In this document: piece after piece, positions 17,541 through 39,831 of the stretch | Numbering within the stretch: the stretch's first letter is position 1 | Layout: every line of letters starts with the position of its first letter | DNA from: a bacterium | Lineage (GTDB): Bacteria > Patescibacteriota > Minisyncoccia > 1-14-0-10-42-19 | Reading direction: 5' to 3' | Assembly (NCBI GenBank): GCA_030690215.1 | Contig: JAUYHD010000016.1 | Span: 17,681 to 81,680 of the forward strand | Length of the DNA stretch: 64,000 nucleotides | The notes under the pieces: generated by a model | The model's database searches: none | What the model was told of the DNA's origin: nothing | Seen by the model: the letters and a program-made list of their open reading frames with translations, nothing else | Position numbers and translations under genes: made by a program

Positions 17541-17848
17541 ACGAAGCCTCCATACCTGTGAAACCCCTTAAGCGTACGCTTAAGGTTTTTCAAAAGTTTT
17601 TCGTTTGGAATATAAACACTTTAATACTTTAAAGTATTAAAGTGATGCTCCATAGGCTTATTCGGCCTTCATAGCCGAATCTGCTTTGGTCTTCTACCCT
17701 CCGTATCCTCAGCGACCGAGTACGAAGTAGACGGGCAGTAGTCTTCTGCGAAAGTGTAGGTGCCATGGAATCTTGACAACGTGTACAATTCCACATACCC
17801 TTTGTGTAGTAAATACATCCTGAAAGGAGATTCGGAATGGAATTTGGA

Positions 17849-19388: not shown

Positions 19389-19403
19389 CCGCACTAAAAA
19401 TTT

Positions 19404-26744: not shown

Positions 26745-26960
26745 AGAGCATTGCCCCCGTTAGATAGGGCGTTGCGAAGCCCGCTCATCTAACGGGGTTG
26801 ACCCCGTAGAGCAATATCGTATGATGCATTCTTATACGTCATTTTATCAAACAACATTTATGAAAAAGCAAGAAAACAAACTAATGCATGTGTCGCTGGC
26901 GGCGAACGCATGACGTATTATGCGATATTGTCTAACGGGGCTGGGTTGACATAAATAAAA
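26745..26960. repeat. Composite palindromic repeat (CCCCGTTAGAT...CTAACGGGG plus GACCCCGTAGAGCAATATCG...), homologous to 46360-46545
   Basis: Shared blocks CCCCGTAGAGCAATATCG(T/C)ATGAT and TTATGCGAT...CTAACGGGG. Confidence 0.6.
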
Positions 26961-33548: not shown

Positions 33549-33598
33549 TTGACCCCGTTAGATGAGCGAGCTTTGAGAAGCTCTATCTAATGGGGCTT
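33549..33598. repeat. Palindromic REP-like element followed by a promoter-like TTGACC-17-TATACT
   Basis: CCCCGTTAGATGAGCGAGCTTTGAGAAGCTCTATCTAATGGGG then GCTTGACCTCAATAATAAAAGGATTATACT. Confidence 0.6.
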
Positions 33599-33960: not shown

Positions 33961-36192
33961 CTTTTTGAGAGTTTGATCCTAGCTCAGGATGAACGCTGGC
34001 GGCGTGGATAAGGCATGCAAGTCGTACGGTCGTGCCTCTCTATCGCTCAGCACTCCCTAAGCTCAAAGTGTAAAACGAAAAGTTCAAAACTAATGTGAAA
34101 TAATTTCAACAAAGTTGAAATTATTATTCCTCAGTTTTACGTTTTTATTTTTGAGTTTTTAGTTTGAGTGCCGAACGGCAGTGAGGCACGACAGTGGCAG
34201 ACGGGGTAGTAACACGTAGGTACATACCACTGAGACAAGAATAACCCAGAGAAATCTGGGATAATACTTGATAGTCTAGTGATCGATTTTCCCTCACAAG
34301 ATGTTTTAATTTTTAATTCTCAATTATCAATTTTCAATAAAAATTTGGAAATTGAAACTTTCTCGCCTCGCCGTAGCTTTAGCGAAGCGGAAACATTGTC
34401 CGCCAGAGGCGGATCCTCCTCCGGAGGAAAAATTCAAAACAGTCCTTGCGGGTAAAAATCGGTTACTAGTAAAGGTTCGTAAGAACCGCTCGGTGAATGG
34501 CCTGCGGGCTATCAGCTTGTTGGTGAGGTAACGGCTCACCAAGGCTATGACGGCTAGGGGGTGTGAGAGCATGGCCCCCACCAATGGAACTGAGACACGG
34601 TCCATACATCTACGGATGGCTGCAGTCGAGAATATTGGGCAATGGGCGAAAGCCTGACCCAGCGACGCCGCGTGCAGGATGAAGGCCTTCGGGCTGTAAA
34701 CTGCTTTTATGGGGGAGGAATCCCCTCCTTGAGGTTGAGTGTGGTACAATCACGCTATGTATTATGTATATATCCTGAAATTAAATAATGAAAAATTATA
34801 CATCGGATACACTGTGGATTTAAAAAGGCGTATTGTTGAACACGAAACAGGAATGAGTATGCATACTAAAAAATTTTTACCTTGCATGCTTGTTTATTAT
34901 GAAGCATACAAATCACGAAAAGATGCGATGAAGCGTGAGAAAAATCTAAAAAAATTCAAAAGTTCATACAGACAATTAAAAATACGTATTGCTTCAAGTA
35001 TATTCGACACCAAGGAGGGGATGACGTTACCCCATGAATAAGGGCTTGCTAACCTCGTGCCAGCAGCCGCGGTAATACGAGGGGCCCAAGCGTTATCCGG
35101 AATCACTGGGCGTAAAGGGTTCGTAGGGGGTTGTATTAGTCCTATGTTAAAGCCTTCGGCTTAACCGAAGAAATGCATAGGAAACGGTATAACTGGAGGG
35201 TGTGAGAGGCTGATGGAACTCACGGTGTAGGGGTGAAATCCGTTGATATCGTGGGGAACACCAAATGCGAAGGCAATCAGCTGGCGCATTCCTGACCCTG
35301 AAGAACGAAAGCGTGGGGATCGAAAAGGATTAGATACCCTTGTAGTCCACGCCCTAAACGTTGATGACTAGCTATTGGAAGTATCGACCCTTCCAGTGGC
35401 GTAGCTAACGCGTTAAGTCATCCGCCTGGGAATTACGATCGCAAGATTAAAACTCAAAGGAATAGACGGGGACTCGCACAAGCGGTGGAGCATGTGGTTC
35501 AATTCGATGATAAGCGAAAAACCTTACCAGGGCTAGAAATTCTAGTGAAGTCGACCCGAAAGGGACGATGTCTCACAAGGACACTAGGACAGGTGCTGCA
35601 TGGTTGTCGTCAGTTCGTGGTTTGAACTGTTCCCTTAAGTGGGTCAACGAACGCAACCCCCGTTGCCTGTTATACATGTCAGGCAAGACTGCCCCTCACT
35701 TTGCGCACAAGCGCAAAGTGAGTTTACTAGTTACGCCTTGCTCTAGTTTGCTAGTTTAAATTTTACAACTAGAAAACTAAAGTGAGCAGAGCGAACGTAA
35801 CTAGAAAACTCACTTTGTTCGTTTGCGAACAAAGTGAGGGGAGGAAGGTGGGGATGACGCCAAATCAGCATGGCCCTCGACGTCCTGGGCTACACACATG
35901 CTACAATGGCACGTACAAAGGGCCGCAAAAGAGCAATCTGGAGCAAATCCCATCAAAACGTGCCCTAGTTCGGATTGAGGTCTGCAACTTGACCTCATGA
36001 AGCTGGAATCGCTAGTAATCGCAGATCAGCACGCTGCGGTGAATACGTTCTCGAGTCTTGTACTCACCGCCCGTCAAGTCAGGGAAGTCGGGAGTACCCG
36101 AAGTGCCAGGTATCTGGCCCGAAGGTAAGCTCGATAACAAGGACTAAGTCGTAACAAGGCACGGCTAGCGGAAGCTGGTCGTGGATCATTAT
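33961..36192 (+). rRNA. 16S rRNA gene, about 2.23 kb, with four insertions. (a) 34063-34170 hairpin element; (b) about 34275-34480 V2 expansion; (c) about 34720-35020 GIY-YIG ORF; (d) about 35694-35848 palindromic insertion. The 3' end is ...GGATCATTATCT and lacks CCUCC.
   Basis: Conserved blocks AGAGTTTGATCCTAGCTCAG, GTGCCAGCAGCCGCGGTAATAC, GGATTAGATACCCTTGTAGTCC, GCATGTGGTTCAATTCGATG, TACACACCGCCCGTCA, AAGTCGTAACAAGG read in order. Confidence 0.9.
34757..35041 (+). CDS. GIY-YIG nuclease-family ORF embedded in the 16S rRNA V3 insertion (possible intron-encoded homing endonuclease)
   Basis: MYYVYILKLNNEKLYIGYTVDLKRRIVEHETG is a canonical GIY-YIG motif; the ORF 3' end runs into the conserved TGACGTTACC rRNA sequence. 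Confidence 0.7.
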   Translation: MYYVYILKLNNEKLYIGYTVDLKRRIVEHETGMSMHTKKFLPCMLVYYEAYKSRKDAMKREKNLKKFKSSYRQLKIRIASSIFDTKEGMTLPHE

Positions 36193-36338
36193 CTAAACTA
36201 TTTCCGATATTCATTTGATTTTTATCAAAAGAAGAAGCGGAACAGTTAGGCGATACTCCCACTGGGAGTAATAGGTGTTAGTCGCGGAGCCTTTAAATCG
36301 CGACTTGAACGGAGCAAAAGAAAACGCACATACACAAA

Positions 36339-36376
36339 GACCCCGAATCGCGTTTGACGCGACGGGGTTTTTGTTT
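36339..36376 (+). terminator. Rho-independent terminator downstream of 16S (GACCCCGAATCGCGTTTGACGCGACGGGGTTTTTG)
   Basis: The same CGCGTTTGACGCGACGG hairpin recurs at 3742-3770 and 21905-21945. Confidence 0.55.
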
Positions 36377-36378
36377 GC

Positions 36379-36507
36379 TTGACAAATAAAATAATCTTTG
36401 CTATCATGCGAGCACCTCACGTTTGAGGCCTATTTGATCGGATGACCTGTAGACCCAGGTCACACGGGGCGAGTTGCTGTAAAAAGCAAGCGCCCCTATT
36501 TTTTTTA
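36379..36507 (+). ncRNA. Candidate about 90-nt small RNA: sigma70-like promoter (TTGACA 36379-36384, 17-bp spacer, TATCAT 36402-36407) then internal hairpin then GGGGCGAGTTGCTGTAAAAAGCAAGCGCCCC + T8 terminator
   Basis: Promoter and terminator read directly; no family assignment possible. Confidence 0.3.
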
Positions 36508-36512
36508 CTTTT

Positions 36513-36590
36513 CATTGACCCAGTTAGATGAGCAAGCTTTGCGAAGCTCTATCTAACGGGGTTGACAATACTCCCCCATTCTGTAGAATA
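36513..36590 (+). promoter_or_regulatory. REP-like palindrome whose 3' arm supplies a -35 (CTAACGGGGTTGACA) for a TTGACA-17-TAGAAT promoter; about 200-nt structured leader upstream of the MoxR-vWA gene
   Basis: Sequence read directly; leader contains hairpin TGCCTTTTTCTATGCATAAAAGGCA. Confidence 0.45.
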
Positions 36591-36798
36591 AACTCCGAAC
36601 TGAATAATTCCCTATCAGAAAGGAAAGGGCAAGTTAGGTTACCAACCTGACCCATTCTATCCCTAGGTAGACCGGAAAAGAGCAGCGTTCTTTTCCCTAC
36701 TTTGAGGACAAAGAATATGTCAGAACCTACCTTGCCTTTTTCTATGCATAAAAGGCAAAGAACATTAAAAATAAAAATAGAACCACACGGAGGATATC

Positions 36799-39363
36799 AT
36801 GGAAGTAACCGCAATAGGAAAGTTTCTCTATGAAGCTCTTGATAAATTTATTGAAGGGCAGGAAGGATTAAAAAAATTCCTCCCCATAAGCTTCCTCGCA
36901 AAAGAAAGCATGCTTATTATCGGTCCCACGGGAACCGCTAAAACCCTCTCGAGCGAATTGATAGCTCACGCAACAGACTTACACCTTCATCATGTACAGG
37001 GCACAAATGAGATGACCATAAATCAGATCATTGGGCCTGCGGTACTCATCCGTGAAAAAACCGATCTCGGCCACGGAAAGGAAGAAGAAAAAATATTTGA
37101 GGGATTTGAGCCAGGCTGTTTTCTTCGGTGTGATACCGGATTTTTTGACGAAATCACGCGAGCGCCTGACGAGATAATGAATGTTCTTCTCCCTATCCTG
37201 AATGAAGGAAGATATGAATATTTCAATCCATCAACCAAAAAGGAAGAATGGACACATTCTTCTATGCGCCAGCTTATTGCCGCGGCAAACCCGAAAAGCA
37301 GGTCTTCAAAACTCTTGGAAGAACAGGTTGTAGACCGGTTCTCCTTGGGAGTTATCTGCAGAAACCTCATATTCAAAAAGAGGTTTAAAAATTTGCGTGA
37401 AGCAATGAGACGGTCGCGTACATGGCCCGAAAATCTTCTTGAAGCCCCGATAAGCAAGGAAATGAAAGGAAGGGTAAGCAAAAGCGATCTGGACAAAGCG
37501 TATGAATGCGTCGGCGGGAGCGATCCTCGGATAAAAATACCTCTTATCGTAACATGGGCTCTTGTGTCTCTCCTCGATATCATCATAGAGACGCGTAATC
37601 TCCAGGAAGACGACGCGGTGTTCACCGACCGAGCCGCTATCGCAAAACTTCATAAGCTTTTGCGGGCGCACGCGCTTTTTGAAGGACGCCTGAAAGTTTC
37701 ATGGGATGACTTCCGCGTATTTTATGGCTACATCACTCACCGAGTGGAAAAAATCCACAGGAAACCGATAAATCATCTGGTTGAGCTGTTTATAGACACG
37801 CTGAAACATCATGTCTATACAAAAGAAATAGCGCAAACTCTTGATGAGCTGGACAAATTAAAAGAAACTATTGACCACAGCTTAGCTGAAGAGAAACAGC
37901 GGGAAGAAAATCTAACGCACGCTCAAGCGCTTGAAACAAAAGCGGAGGCATTTTTCGAAGAGATAAAATCTTTTTTTATAACGGCAAAGGACGCGCTCGC
38001 ACAGATCAACACCTATGAAGAATTGCGCGACGCAACATCCGAAAAGCCCTTTGAAGGAAGTTTTAAGGATGTCCCTTCGCCTGATAAAAAAGAGAGCGCT
38101 CCCCCCGCAGACCAACTCAAAAATCAGGAGCCAAAGAAAGAAGACCAAAACCCTGCGCCGAAAGACAAAGAACCGCAGGGGCACCGAGAACAGGGAGCAA
38201 AAGACAAAAAAATGACGTTTAATGATTTTTTTCTTGATCAGCAAGAACCAACCATTGAGCTCTCCACCTCTCAAACGCATGAAGCGGGCCCTGAAACCGA
38301 TATAGATCTGCGCGGTATAAAAAACTTTGAGACTGCCGAAAGTGTGAATATCTTCCTTGTAGAGATAGGACGCCTTAAAGAAAGTTTTCGGGTGCAGAGA
38401 AAGAAAGAGCACCCTCGCCGGGGCGAAATATCCCACAGAAAACCAATAAAAAATCTTGAGGATATAAAAAAAGCGGAACCTTCGCGGATTCCCGAATATA
38501 TTGATTCGGGCGCGCCAAAACCACTGATAAAAATACGAACGGTCCCCGACATATGCCTATTTACCGCGCGGGATGTTTCGTATTCTATGGCAGGTGAAGT
38601 GGCGGGCAAAGGAACGCTTGCGACAAAAGGGAATCTGGCACGCTGGGCATCCCAGATTGATATTGCAATCTGCCATGAAGGACAGCAAAGAGATTTCTCC
38701 TATGCTCATATGGACTTCAGCGAGCGGCAGTATTTCTCAACAGAACAGAGGATTGCTCTTGCCGAACAGATGAGACTCATCTCCCCTGATATTTCAAAAA
38801 TAGAAAAGCTCATACACTCTACCGATTGCAAAGGAGCTACCGACATTGAATTCATGATAGAGACGGCACTATCCCATATTGAGGAACGCACCAAACGGTA
38901 TGGAGAAATGCTTACCTTTCTTGTCCCTATAACTGACGGGATAGAAACTATCCGCCACGGAAAACTTGATGCACTGCTTGCGGCATGCGTCAAAAAATCT
39001 ATCGTTATTACGCCGGTATTCATTTTTGACCCATTGGGTATAAAGGGTCAGGAATATATCGTCTATAAAAACGGACGGATGACAGATCTGAAAGCTCCGA
39101 GCACCATCAGCCATATGGCTGAGGAAACGGAAGGTATGATCTTTTGGGGAATACAGGACAGCGAGCACGACAGAGTCGCATTCGCGACAAAGGATACTGC
39201 GCTTAGAATAATACGGGCGCTCGCGCATACCAGCAAGATAGAAGCTCCCCGATTTTCCTCCACGGGAAAGAACTATCGGTCTTTCGGAAACAATATGAGT
39301 ACTGACGGAGAAAAACAAAAAACTCCGTTCAATACTGAAAATCTTTATAAGACAGGTACATAA
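36799..39363 (+). CDS. Fused MoxR-like AAA+ ATPase (N-terminus) and von Willebrand factor A domain with MIDAS (C-terminus), 854 aa
   Basis: Walker A GPTGTAKT; Walker B and sensor FFDEITRAPDEIMNVLLPILNEGRY; C-terminal ARDVSYSMAG (DxSxS MIDAS) and ITDGIE; long charged linker. Confidence 0.65.
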   Translation: MEVTAIGKFLYEALDKFIEGQEGLKKFLPISFLAKESMLIIGPTGTAKTLSSELIAHATDLHLHHVQGTNEMTINQIIGPAVLIREKTDLGHGKEEEKIFEGFEPGCFLRCDTGFFDEITRAPDEIMNVLLPILNEGRYEYFNPSTKKEEWTHSSMRQLIAAANPKSRSSKLLEEQVVDRFSLGVICRNLIFKKRFKNLREAMRRSRTWPENLLEAPISKEMKGRVSKSDLDKAYECVGGSDPRIKIPLIVTWALVSLLDIIIETRNLQEDDAVFTDRAAIAKLHKLLRAHALFEGRLKVSWDDFRVFYGYITHRVEKIHRKPINHLVELFIDTLKHHVYTKEIAQTLDELDKLKETIDHSLAEEKQREENLTHAQALETKAEAFFEEIKSFFITAKDALAQINTYEELRDATSEKPFEGSFKDVPSPDKKESAPPADQLKNQEPKKEDQNPAPKDKEPQGHREQGAKDKKMTFNDFFLDQQEPTIELSTSQTHEAGPETDIDLRGIKNFETAESVNIFLVEIGRLKESFRVQRKKEHPRRGEISHRKPIKNLEDIKKAEPSRIPEYIDSGAPKPLIKIRTVPDICLFTARDVSYSMAGEVAGKGTLATKGNLARWASQIDIAICHEGQQRDFSYAHMDFSERQYFSTEQRIALAEQMRLISPDISKIEKLIHSTDCKGATDIEFMIETALSHIEERTKRYGEMLTFLVPITDGIETIRHGKLDALLAACVKKSIVITPVFIFDPLGIKGQEYIVYKNGRMTDLKAPSTISHMAEETEGMIFWGIQDSEHDRVAFATKDTALRIIRALAHTSKIEAPRFSSTGKNYRSFGNNMSTDGEKQKTPFNTENLYKTGT

Positions 39364-39438
39364 AATCAATAAGCCCAGACATCTTGTCTGGGCTCTTTTC
39401 TTGCCTTTTTTTGTATTTTTGGTATCATAGTACCTATC

Positions 39439-39831
39439 ATGTTAATGATCAGACTACAGCGAGTAGGACGTAAAAATGACCCAAGTTTTCGGGTTGTTAT
39501 TACCGAAAAGGCAAATGCGGCAAAATCAGGCGCCTTTCTTGAAATTGTCGGGTCATATGATGCCCGCAAAGACCGTGTCCAACTCAAACAAGATCGCATC
39601 CAGCATTGGCTTTCGCATGGGGCAAAAACATCAGCCACGGTCCACAATATGCTGGTAAATGCAAAAATAATCAACGCGCCAAAAGTAAACGCATTACCCT
39701 CAAAAAAAATCAAACCGGAAGAAGCAAAAACAGAAGCCCCGGCACCAGCACAAAAAGCTGAAGAAATGGCGCCAACAGCAACAGCCGAAGCACCCGCGGA
39801 AGCAAAAGCGGAGGAGGATCCAACAGCATAA
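39439..39831 (+). CDS. rpsP: 30S ribosomal protein S16 with an Ala/Lys/Glu-rich C-terminal extension
   Basis: MLMIRLQRVGRKNDPSFRVVITE... Confidence 0.9.
   Translation: MLMIRLQRVGRKNDPSFRVVITEKANAAKSGAFLEIVGSYDARKDRVQLKQDRIQHWLSHGAKTSATVHNMLVNAKIINAPKVNALPSKKIKPEEAKTEAPAPAQKAEEMAPTATAEAPAEAKAEEDPTA

Follow-up and report, generated by a model that had tools for sequence, protein, structure and literature searches.

A single-chain MoxR-type AAA+ and von Willebrand factor A protein of Patescibacteria, encoded behind a structured leader RNA that also precedes a protease operon

The present analysis concerns a window of 64,000 nucleotides (the whole stretch of DNA studied, positions 17,681 to 81,680 of contig JAUYHD010000016.1, assembly GCA_030690215.1, Patescibacteriota) and, within it, an open reading frame (ORF) of 854 codons on the + strand (36799..39363, ATG start; the coordinates match those first given). 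An initial annotation had described this gene as encoding a MoxR-type AAA+ ATPase fused to a von Willebrand factor A (vWA) domain with a MIDAS motif (metal-ion-dependent adhesion site), preceded by a long structured 5' leader. Overall, the best explanation of our data is that the locus is a monocistronic unit, made up of a promoter, an RNA leader of ~200 nt, the fused AAA+-vWA gene and a terminator. The leader is a structured RNA family that is absent from Rfam 15 and is shared with a protease operon, while the protein represents a rare new family of known architecture. Of the two, the leader RNA is the more novel and the more testable, and a literature search found no prior description of either the RNA motif or the fused family in bacteria of the Candidate Phyla Radiation (CPR).

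The ~200 nt that precede the ATG fold at -58.7 kcal/mol (z=-5.06 versus dinucleotide shuffles), and the leader is conserved in all five lineages carrying the AAA+-vWA gene. Its core of ~135 nt, at 36610..36746 of the window (this and all leader features below lie on the + strand), consists of a block A, a hairpin P2, a block B, a variable rod and a pyrimidine strand Y; it matches the covariance model described below with 148 bits and folds with a z of -8.5. In versions without an insert in P2 the cores measure 110-130 nt, and each of the nine cores tested beat its dinucleotide shuffles (z=-4.65 to -8.47). Block A, AAAGGAAAGGGYAAG (36619..36633, AAAGGAAAGGGCAAG), is found as a single copy in the window and shows 0-1 substitution in the ten complete instances of the RNA known to us. 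It forms the 5' strand of the closing helix P1, and strand Y is its partner in each of the nine minimum-free-energy folds computed. Strand Y (36731..36743, CTTGCCTTTTTCT) is the 3' strand of P1, with which block A makes a 13-bp helix, G-U pairs included, and it ends in a U-run; in the AAA+-vWA class its sequence is CUUGCC(C)UUUU, in most protease leaders ..CUUUCCUUUUUU, and in the protease locus L010 CUGCCCCUUCCUUUUUU. A U-run follows P1 in every instance. Block B, CCCAKTCTATCCCTA (36651..36665, CCCATTCTATCCCTA), carries at most one substitution (K at position 5) across all eleven instances, and in each sequence folded its partner is a variable strand further downstream. Thus blocks A and B stay near-invariant while the encoded proteins are 29-46% identical, and the intervening segments vary freely.

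The hairpin P2, which starts at the final G of block A and ends at the initial C of block B (36633..36651), forms in all nine sequences folded alone, with stems that are unrelated in sequence (GUUAGGUU/AACCUGAC, GUUAG/CUAAC, GCUGA/UCAGC and GGUC/GACC). With the register set by hand, 43 of 43 cells pair, and in four of the eight pairs, 10 cells in total, both partners change. The resulting covariation score of 0.389 compares with 0.146+/-0.040 for shuffles; none of 500 shuffles reached it, and slid registers scored around zero. Since the three leaders aligned with plain MAFFT for RNAalifold came out misaligned in their variable middle, pair counting was limited to P2 and the covariance model was given only P1 and P2. 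P2 is extended by ~100-130 nt in loci L005 (518-646), L012 (1297-1406) and L016 (219-321), and because these expansions are independent, in three lineages and in both gene classes, P2 is a tolerated insertion site. Two of the expansions were folded and proved stable, at -52 and -58 kcal/mol. The U-G pairs in P2, the G-U pairs in P1 and the higher sense-strand model scores all indicate the + strand as the one that acts.

The initial annotation had held that the leader hairpins could be a regulatory RNA element. As regards a conserved and folded RNA this is upheld, by the folding z-score, by P2 covariation and by eleven instances including a different operon; all five AAA+-vWA lineages keep the leader and all nine cores fold, so that it is neither unconserved nor unstructured in relatives. 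The Rfam scan then proposed brought up no known element: Rfam 15 (4,227 families) gave no real match at E<=10 in the leader of the window or in that of L011, and no leader match at the gathering score in the window, L001, L005 or L010. Signal recognition particle RNA, RNase P RNA and 6S RNA were rejected as identities of the leader, there being no Rfam matches and the architecture being unfit. A conserved small ORF within the leader was likewise rejected, as the only ATG frame (36717) is without counterpart in L001.

Scanning 185,579 species-representative genomes for the two-block pattern gave one match, L010, present as a single copy in that genome. Here the RNA stands 25-35 nt before a gene whose product is a secreted C-terminal processing protease of the S41/PDZ type (Pfam E=1.4e-22; NCBIfam prc). 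The gene after it, an overlapping one, encodes a secreted protein of 330 aa and no known family; the orthologous loci L011, L013 and L016 continue with an MFS/BT1 transporter gene. The RNA was also found before the protease orthologues of L011 (77% identity), L012 (46%), L013, L015 and L016 (43% each), so that six of the seven orthologous lineages checked possess it; the most distant orthologue, that of L014 (40%), is without it. None of the peptidase orthologues listed comes from an NCBI-annotated genome. The protease-class RNAs lie at L010:4699-4817(-), L011:2661-2779, L012:1269-1490, L013:961-1077, L015:1-80 and L016:195-405, always 25-35 nt upstream of the protease, the L015 copy being without block A as its contig is cut inside block B. 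Compilation of both classes gives eleven instances, at five AAA+-vWA loci and six S41 protease loci, all of them 5' of the gene and co-oriented with it. A covariance model built from three AAA+-vWA-class leaders only, and run over 136 kb, recovered at full length the protease-class RNAs of L011 (E=1.5e-5), L010 (2.3e-4) and L013 (0.02), in addition to L005 and L009, and nothing else in these 136 kb besides weaker antisense echoes of the same loci. L012 and L016, with their long P2 insert, were missed by the model and were found by exact-block searches. A scan of viral contigs for the RNA gave no match, and a metagenome scan with the AAA+-vWA-class pattern returned only contigs of the type that encodes P0002, the closest relative of the fused protein (see below).

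In all leaders, strand Y pairs locally with a downstream purine tract once the upstream half of the RNA is removed. That purine partner is the ribosome-binding site itself in L009 and in the protease class, and a separate tract, A', in the window, L001, L005 and L008. In the window A' (AAAAGGCAAAG, 36750..36760) can serve as alternative hairpin partner of Y; there and in L001 it is a purine copy of block A, and the local Y:A' hairpin amounts to -9.8 kcal/mol in the former and -15.5 in the latter. Strand Y would accordingly have a choice between block A, closing P1, and the downstream purine tract, which is the layout of a two-state switch. We recomputed the accessibility of the ribosome-binding site with block A held unpaired. 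For the protease-class leaders L010-L013 it went from 0.74-0.99 with block A free to 0.01-0.26 with block A held unpaired, and for L009 from 0.36 to 0.07. In silico, therefore, the layout of L009-L013 behaves as a translational switch whose folded domain would keep the gene on, the formation of P1 being predicted to expose the ribosome-binding site in the protease leaders and in L009. The corresponding values are 0.37 and 0.42 for the window, 0.58 and 0.42 for L001, 0.01 and 0.00 for L005, and 0.04 and 0.04 for L008. In the window leader, control may instead run through the terminator-like P1 and its U-run, which together could act as a terminator and would fit an attenuator or a stand-alone small RNA.

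Taking these data together, we lean slightly towards a cis-regulatory role for the leader. That it is a riboswitch for a small molecule or an ion is a markedly more tentative proposal, and we are similarly guarded about its fullest form, namely a new ligand-sensing riboswitch class, so far met only in environmental, CPR-type metagenomic lineages, that would switch on an AAA+-vWA remodeller or a Ctp protease operon. As in riboswitches and protein-responsive leaders, there is a folded domain in the 5' untranslated region, the 3' strand of its closing helix can pair with the ribosome-binding site, and unrelated genes lie downstream; unlike in them, Y has in the window's leader class an alternative partner other than the ribosome-binding site, the closing helix is itself followed by a U-run, and no Rfam 15 family matches. 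Several observations weigh against regulation by such a switch. Accessibility does not change meaningfully in the window, L001, L005 and L008, so the translational model fails to explain the window locus. A P1 helix followed by a U-run looks terminator-like and fits a stand-alone small RNA equally well. There are only two gene contexts, perhaps belonging to different lineages with one copy per genome, which makes the regulon argument weak. Covariation applies to P2 only, with a hand-set register, the invariant blocks A and B being silent on pairing. Moreover, the 16S rRNA tail of this clade is without CCUCC, which renders the reading of the GGAGG site before the fused gene puzzling.

The conserved RNA might alternatively be a small RNA that acts in trans, is ended by P1 and the U-run, and leaves the downstream gene to be expressed by read-through only; we regard this as a serious, though less likely, rival. 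It would account for a strong promoter followed, in all instances, by a rod of high stability with a U-run at its end, for a degree of sequence conservation more typical of an RNA with a fixed partner, and for a ribosome-binding site that, in the window, is unaffected by the A:Y alternative; the data also fit one copy per genome in two different positions. For a read-through gene downstream of a small RNA, the 6S RNA/ygfA pair of Escherichia coli is a precedent, and the leader resembles 6S RNA in its rod-like shape and high stability, in its strong promoter and in sharing a transcript with a protein gene downstream. However, it is shorter, and in place of the large central bubble of 6S it has a branching hairpin and small internal loops, with no Rfam 6S match. 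A free-standing RNA is further opposed by the co-orientation of both contexts at 25-65 nt from the start codon, by the complementarity of Y to the gene's own ribosome-binding site in five leaders, and by the spacing: no promoter-like site exists between the promoter at 36562-36589 and the ATG in the window (one further upstream serves a separate small unit), and the 25-35 nt available in the protease loci are too short. A role at the level of DNA, as a protein-binding site, a repeat element or an oversized terminator or insulator, strikes us as very improbable. Blocks A and B are indeed conserved as sequence and a palindrome adjoins the promoter, but P2 keeps pairing through two-sided changes with its sequence free to vary, the U-G pairs of P2 and the G-U pairs of P1 exist only on the + strand transcript, insertions of ~100-130 nt are tolerated only as extensions of P2, and the element lies downstream of the promoter at every locus, the palindrome being separate and lineage-specific.

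To our knowledge, almost nothing is known about gene regulation in CPR bacteria or Patescibacteria. A 2024 review brings up riboswitches only as a possible engineering tool for CPR bacteria (PMC11665869). A near-invariant RNA beside a protein that has drifted to 29% identity offers a concrete and testable candidate for a regulatory element in this group, and two unrelated protein-handling genes behind one RNA provide a starting point for finding the signal. Were the riboswitch reading true, it would define a small regulon of protein maturation or quality control, and would hint at a signal that these ultrasmall bacteria monitor.

Turning to the protein, five lineages, drawn from independent NCBI, JGI, ENA and Logan assemblies, each encode it as an uninterrupted chain of 789-858 aa with the same domain order. 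Relative to the window's protein (P0001), the identities are 77% for P0002, the nearest named relative, from Candidatus Niyogibacteria, 45-46% for P0003, 31% for P0004 and 29% for P0005. A profile of the C-terminal part, searched against 1.84 billion cluster representatives that stand for ~15 billion proteins, recovered P0001, P0003, P0004 and P0005 and, spuriously, one TPR protein; among these representatives the vWA part had no stand-alone relative, only fused members being found. The indexed protein search, swamped by AAA+ candidates, yielded three proteins, P0004 and P0005 being obtained from the exhaustive search only, and a protein scan of the species-representative genomes returned no family member. 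The search for the fused architecture in other genomes that had been called for thus ends at five lineages in all. That the single ORF might be an artefact, by a missed frameshift or by an assembly join of two genes, is next to inconceivable: its presence as one chain in five lineages from independent assemblies excludes either error, and the artefact is further opposed by the lack of any free-standing C-terminal counterpart. Shown by the data are the domain identities, the intact catalytic and MIDAS residues and, in all five known lineages, the fusion itself, which is genuine. Pfam, profile alignment, invariant motifs and the C-terminal model agree with the initial description of one 854-aa chain with a MoxR-type AAA+ module and a MIDAS-bearing vWA domain. 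Its contention that such domains are normally separate partners stands in part; the fusion is real here, yet it is not unprecedented, given ChlD/BchD, Rea1/midasin and VWA8, and Rea1, ChlD and VWA8 have been named together as AAA+ proteins with a vWA/MIDAS domain (PMC9976466).

By sequence criteria, the N-terminal third of the protein (residues 1-316; 36799..37746, + strand) is a MoxR-family AAA+ ATPase. Pfam AAA_5 matches residues 38-181 (E=4.6e-17; 62.8 bits against a cut-off of 22), and bpMoxR (PF20030) matches the window's protein at E=3.5e-9 (36.5 bits against 27) and all five members, at best with E=1.2e-15; AAA_5 is likewise matched by five of five. For AAA_3 the window's protein falls under the cut-off (22.4 versus 27), all five members nevertheless giving a match (best E=1.2e-7), and the match of the lid to AAA_lid_8 is weak. 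A profile of the N-terminal 345 residues of the five sequences aligned with the solved MoxR structure 2r44 over positions 10-316, lid included (E=1.5e-13), with RavA over positions 12-302 (E=6e-13) and with the AAA modules of midasin (3.7e-17, a value summed over modules). In all five members, G42, G45, K48 and T49 of Walker A (G42-T49, GxxGxGK[ST]) and D117 and E118 of Walker B (hhhhDE) are invariant, as are N164, R180, R289 and R297, and because of these invariant residues the ATPase is probably active. The full-length AlphaFold model, of pLDDT (predicted local distance difference test) only 52.6 and too poor for fold searches, places beta-hairpins at 81-103 and 138-153, where the helix-2 insert and the pre-sensor-1 hairpin are expected.

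Between the end of the AAA+ module (residue ~316) and the start of the vWA domain (~585) lies a linker of ~268 residues (317-584; 37747..38550, + strand), in keeping with the charged linker noted initially. The low-confidence full-length model renders residues 318-412 as helical and ~414-509 as disordered, and the latter stretch, as can be read directly from the sequence, is rich in K, E, P and Q. Towards its end, at residues ~488-535 with a helix (window 38260-38400), the linker carries the motif LSTSQ..AGPETDI..NF..AE, and G497, P498, N509, F510 and A513 are invariant in the five-member alignment. The domain that follows (residues 585-812; 38551..39234, + strand) is accepted here as a divergent vWA domain with a complete MIDAS, its predicted membership holding at the level of fold and motif and not at that of curated models. 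The MIDAS residues D592-x-S594-x-S596, G679-x-T681 and T712-D713-G714 are invariant in the five members. The vWA families of Pfam and NCBIfam gave no match at E<=0.01 for the C-terminal ~270 residues of any of the five, and the exhaustive HMMER search with the C-terminal profile recovered no ordinary vWA protein; the sole sequence match in the PDB, a weak one, was to the vWA domain of TRAP, aligned on the GxT and TDG motifs. For residues 478-854, an AlphaFold model (mean pLDDT 64.7, predicted template modelling score (pTM) 0.66, core pLDDT 65-92) gave 91 PDB matches at E<=1e-3 in Foldseek, with only vWA domains among the matches listed. The chain closes with a tail (residues 813-854, then the stop codon; 39235..39363, + strand) that is predicted to be disordered. 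Two motifs recur in it (residues ~817-848, window 39250-39345), namely FSSTGKxY, whose region is found in P0001-P0004, and an EKQKTPF-type motif, found in P0001, P0002 and P0004.

In MoxR/vWA pairs, the vWA protein docks on the hexamer and its MIDAS grips an acidic patch of the target (PMC9976466, PMC13036017), as in an earlier model in which the MIDAS site takes hold of acidic target residues (PMC9976466). For NorQ/NorD, a finger of the vWA domain is reported to enter the pore of the MoxR hexamer, and the C-terminus of NorD to contact the ring (PMC13036017). From NorQ/NorD, CbbQ/CbbO and ChlD, we infer hexamer formation, metal binding and target capture by the fused protein: it would assemble into a hexameric ring on which the tethered vWA domain would dock, a divalent cation bound at the MIDAS would capture an acidic residue of the target protein, and ATP hydrolysis would remodel or release that target. 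In the C-terminal model, the beta-hairpin at 754-764 could be a pore-inserting finger and the tail could provide a NorD-like C-terminal contact. By analogy with the C-terminus of NorD, the motifs of the linker and tail are candidate docking elements for the AAA+ ring. The initial suggestion of a chaperone-like remodeller acting on a metal-dependent partner agrees with what is seen in MoxR/vWA pairs; no candidate target protein is visible in the gene neighbourhood. Two points detract from this picture, in that the vWA assignment draws on a model of mean pLDDT 64.7 built from five sequences, and that the hexamer, the bound metal and the target are all extrapolated from relatives.

ChlD/BchD likewise unites in a single chain an AAA+ module at the N-terminus and an integrin-I/vWA domain at the C-terminus, joined by a long low-complexity linker; the MIDAS motif of the latter governs the binding of ChlH, mediating Mg-dependent binding of this target subunit (PMC6604950). 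Mutations in the AAA+ module of ChlD are reported to lower chelatase activity without abolishing it (PMC3789969), and the role of motor has been ascribed to ChlI (PMC10653834). In the fused protein, in contrast, Pfam Mg_chelatase reaches 15.4 bits where the cut-off is 20.3, and TIGR02442 12 bits where it is 779, the linker is K/E/P-rich where that of ChlD is an acidic polyproline, and no ChlI- or ChlH-like genes lie near the gene. Membership of the chelatase family was rejected on these scores and on the missing ChlI and ChlH neighbours. Nor is synthesis of chlorophyll or cobalamin known from CPR bacteria. With NorQ/NorD, CbbQ/CbbO and RavA/ViaA, the fused protein shares the same kind of AAA+ module, its closest solved relatives being MoxR 2r44 and RavA. 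It differs from these two-protein remodellers in that a fused chain would give a 6:6 stoichiometry, as opposed to the 6:1 of NorQ:NorD, in lacking an N-terminal target-specificity domain of the NorD/CbbO kind, and in a vWA domain too divergent for Pfam models. Midasin, a eukaryotic protein, has six tandem AAA+ modules in ~4,700-4,900 residues (solved entries), whereas the fused protein has one module and must oligomerise. It may be viewed as a compact, self-contained MoxR/vWA machine and, with the mechanism of NorQD resolved structurally in 2026, a protein of this one-chain kind could lend itself well as a model of an ATPase ring that drives a vWA adaptor.

The surroundings of the gene might suggest a bacterial counterpart of midasin/Rea1, which would use its MIDAS to strip an assembly factor from pre-ribosomes. 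The fused gene starts ~600 bp downstream of the 16S rRNA gene (33961-36196), its immediate downstream neighbour is rpsP, encoding ribosomal protein S16 (39439-39831, + strand), and the order 16S, leader, fused gene, rpsP is kept in the window, L001, L005 and L008; the AAA+ profile also matches the modules of midasin, as given above. We nonetheless consider a ribosomal role unlikely. These lineages are close relatives (16S identity of 92.1% over aligned columns between the window and L001; S16 cores ~80-93% identical, as read by eye from alignments), and the synteny may for this reason be merely inherited. The fused gene is served by a promoter and a terminator of its own, the matches to midasin are of a kind common to AAA_5 and vWA folds in general, with 2r44, RavA and many unrelated vWA domains scoring similarly, and the same leader precedes a secreted protease, which is no ribosome factor. 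Still less probable, in our view, is that the protein is central to a conflict or defence system of the MoxR-vWA type treated by Kaur et al. (2020). The match of all five members to bpMoxR would be in line with this, but no third component or effector gene is adjacent, the neighbourhood being housekeeping and syntenic, and PADLOC gave only a weak match in the Walker A region (IetA, E=6.8e-4) and no defence assignment. In addition, the vWA component of the ternary systems described is a separate, effector-carrying protein (PMC7159879), while the fused gene is monocistronic.

Transcription of the unit is predicted to start from a sigma-70-type promoter, TTGACA-16-TAGAAT (36562..36589, + strand), with 11 of 12 matches to consensus; TTGACA and a -10 box of the TAnAAT type are present at all five AAA+-vWA-class loci. 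Its -35 box is abutted by a palindrome of ~45 bp (36518..36562) resembling repetitive extragenic palindromic (REP) elements, with 12-nt arms (36518-36529/36551-36562) that are 92% complementary. The palindrome, CCCNGTTAGATGAGCnnGC..GCnCTATCTAACGGGG, has two more copies in the window, at 33552-33596 and at ~26755-26800 (-), where 0.07 would be expected by chance; the promoter had first been described as embedded in a REP-like palindrome, and these extra copies make the term a fair one. In one copy the inner stem differs on both sides, and two of the three copies abut TTGAC -35-like boxes, one of them ~400 bp upstream of the 16S gene. In L001 and L005 the palindrome is missing from the sequence upstream of the leader; it is lineage-specific and separate from the conserved RNA, and may be a REP-like element or an operator.

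The ribosome-binding site of the fused gene is a GGAGG (36789..36793, + strand) whose 3' end lies 5 nt before the ATG, and a GGAGG stands shortly before the ATG in all five lineages. GGAG or GAGG is found upstream of only five of the 39 long ORFs of the window, many of which look leaderless, with a -10-like box directly before the ATG; as many window genes appear so organised, a leader of ~200 nt is exceptional here. The 3' tail of the 16S rRNA, according to the Rfam alignment (window 36183-36196; L005 28-45), is GGAUCAUUAUCUAA, without the canonical CCUCC anti-Shine-Dalgarno sequence. At the other end of the unit, a hairpin read from the sequence as AGCCCAGAC..GTCTGGGCT, then the T-run CTTTTCTTGCCTTTTTTT, makes up a predicted intrinsic terminator (39372..39405, + strand), and a terminator after the stop codon is found in L009 as well.

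Other neighbours of the fused gene include those for SMC and RNase III. The three small genes that the initial annotation had placed downstream on the opposite strand do exist, beyond rpsP, and match no Pfam family; their number and sizes at that position vary among relatives, no link to the fused gene was seen, and the true neighbour, rpsP, had been overlooked.

The 16S gene of the window measures 2,236 nt, against the 1,533 positions of the model, and compared with the uninterrupted 16S gene of L001 contains insertions at ~34025-34182, ~34275-34467 and ~34721-35021, the third of which holds an ORF for a GIY-YIG endonuclease (34739-35041; Pfam E=9.7e-14). No 23S gene follows it, and tRNA-Ile and tRNA-Ala genes are located at 19403 and 6934. 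The 16S trailer is followed by a terminator hairpin (36340-36375; ACCCCG..CGGGGTTTTT), and a trailer block, GGAACAAAAGAAAA, is common to the window, L001, L005 and L008, with one substitution in the window. From its sequence layout, the 16S gene appears to be transcribed and terminated by itself. Between this terminator and the palindrome lies another strong promoter, TTGACA-17-TATCAT, which has an upstream TG (36379-36407) and heads a unit of ~90 nt that ends in a terminator hairpin and T-run (~36470-36508). Promoter-terminator units are found at the equivalent position in L001 (two), L005 and L008, with no obvious sequence likeness among them by eye, and the unit at 36379-36508 may be a small RNA.

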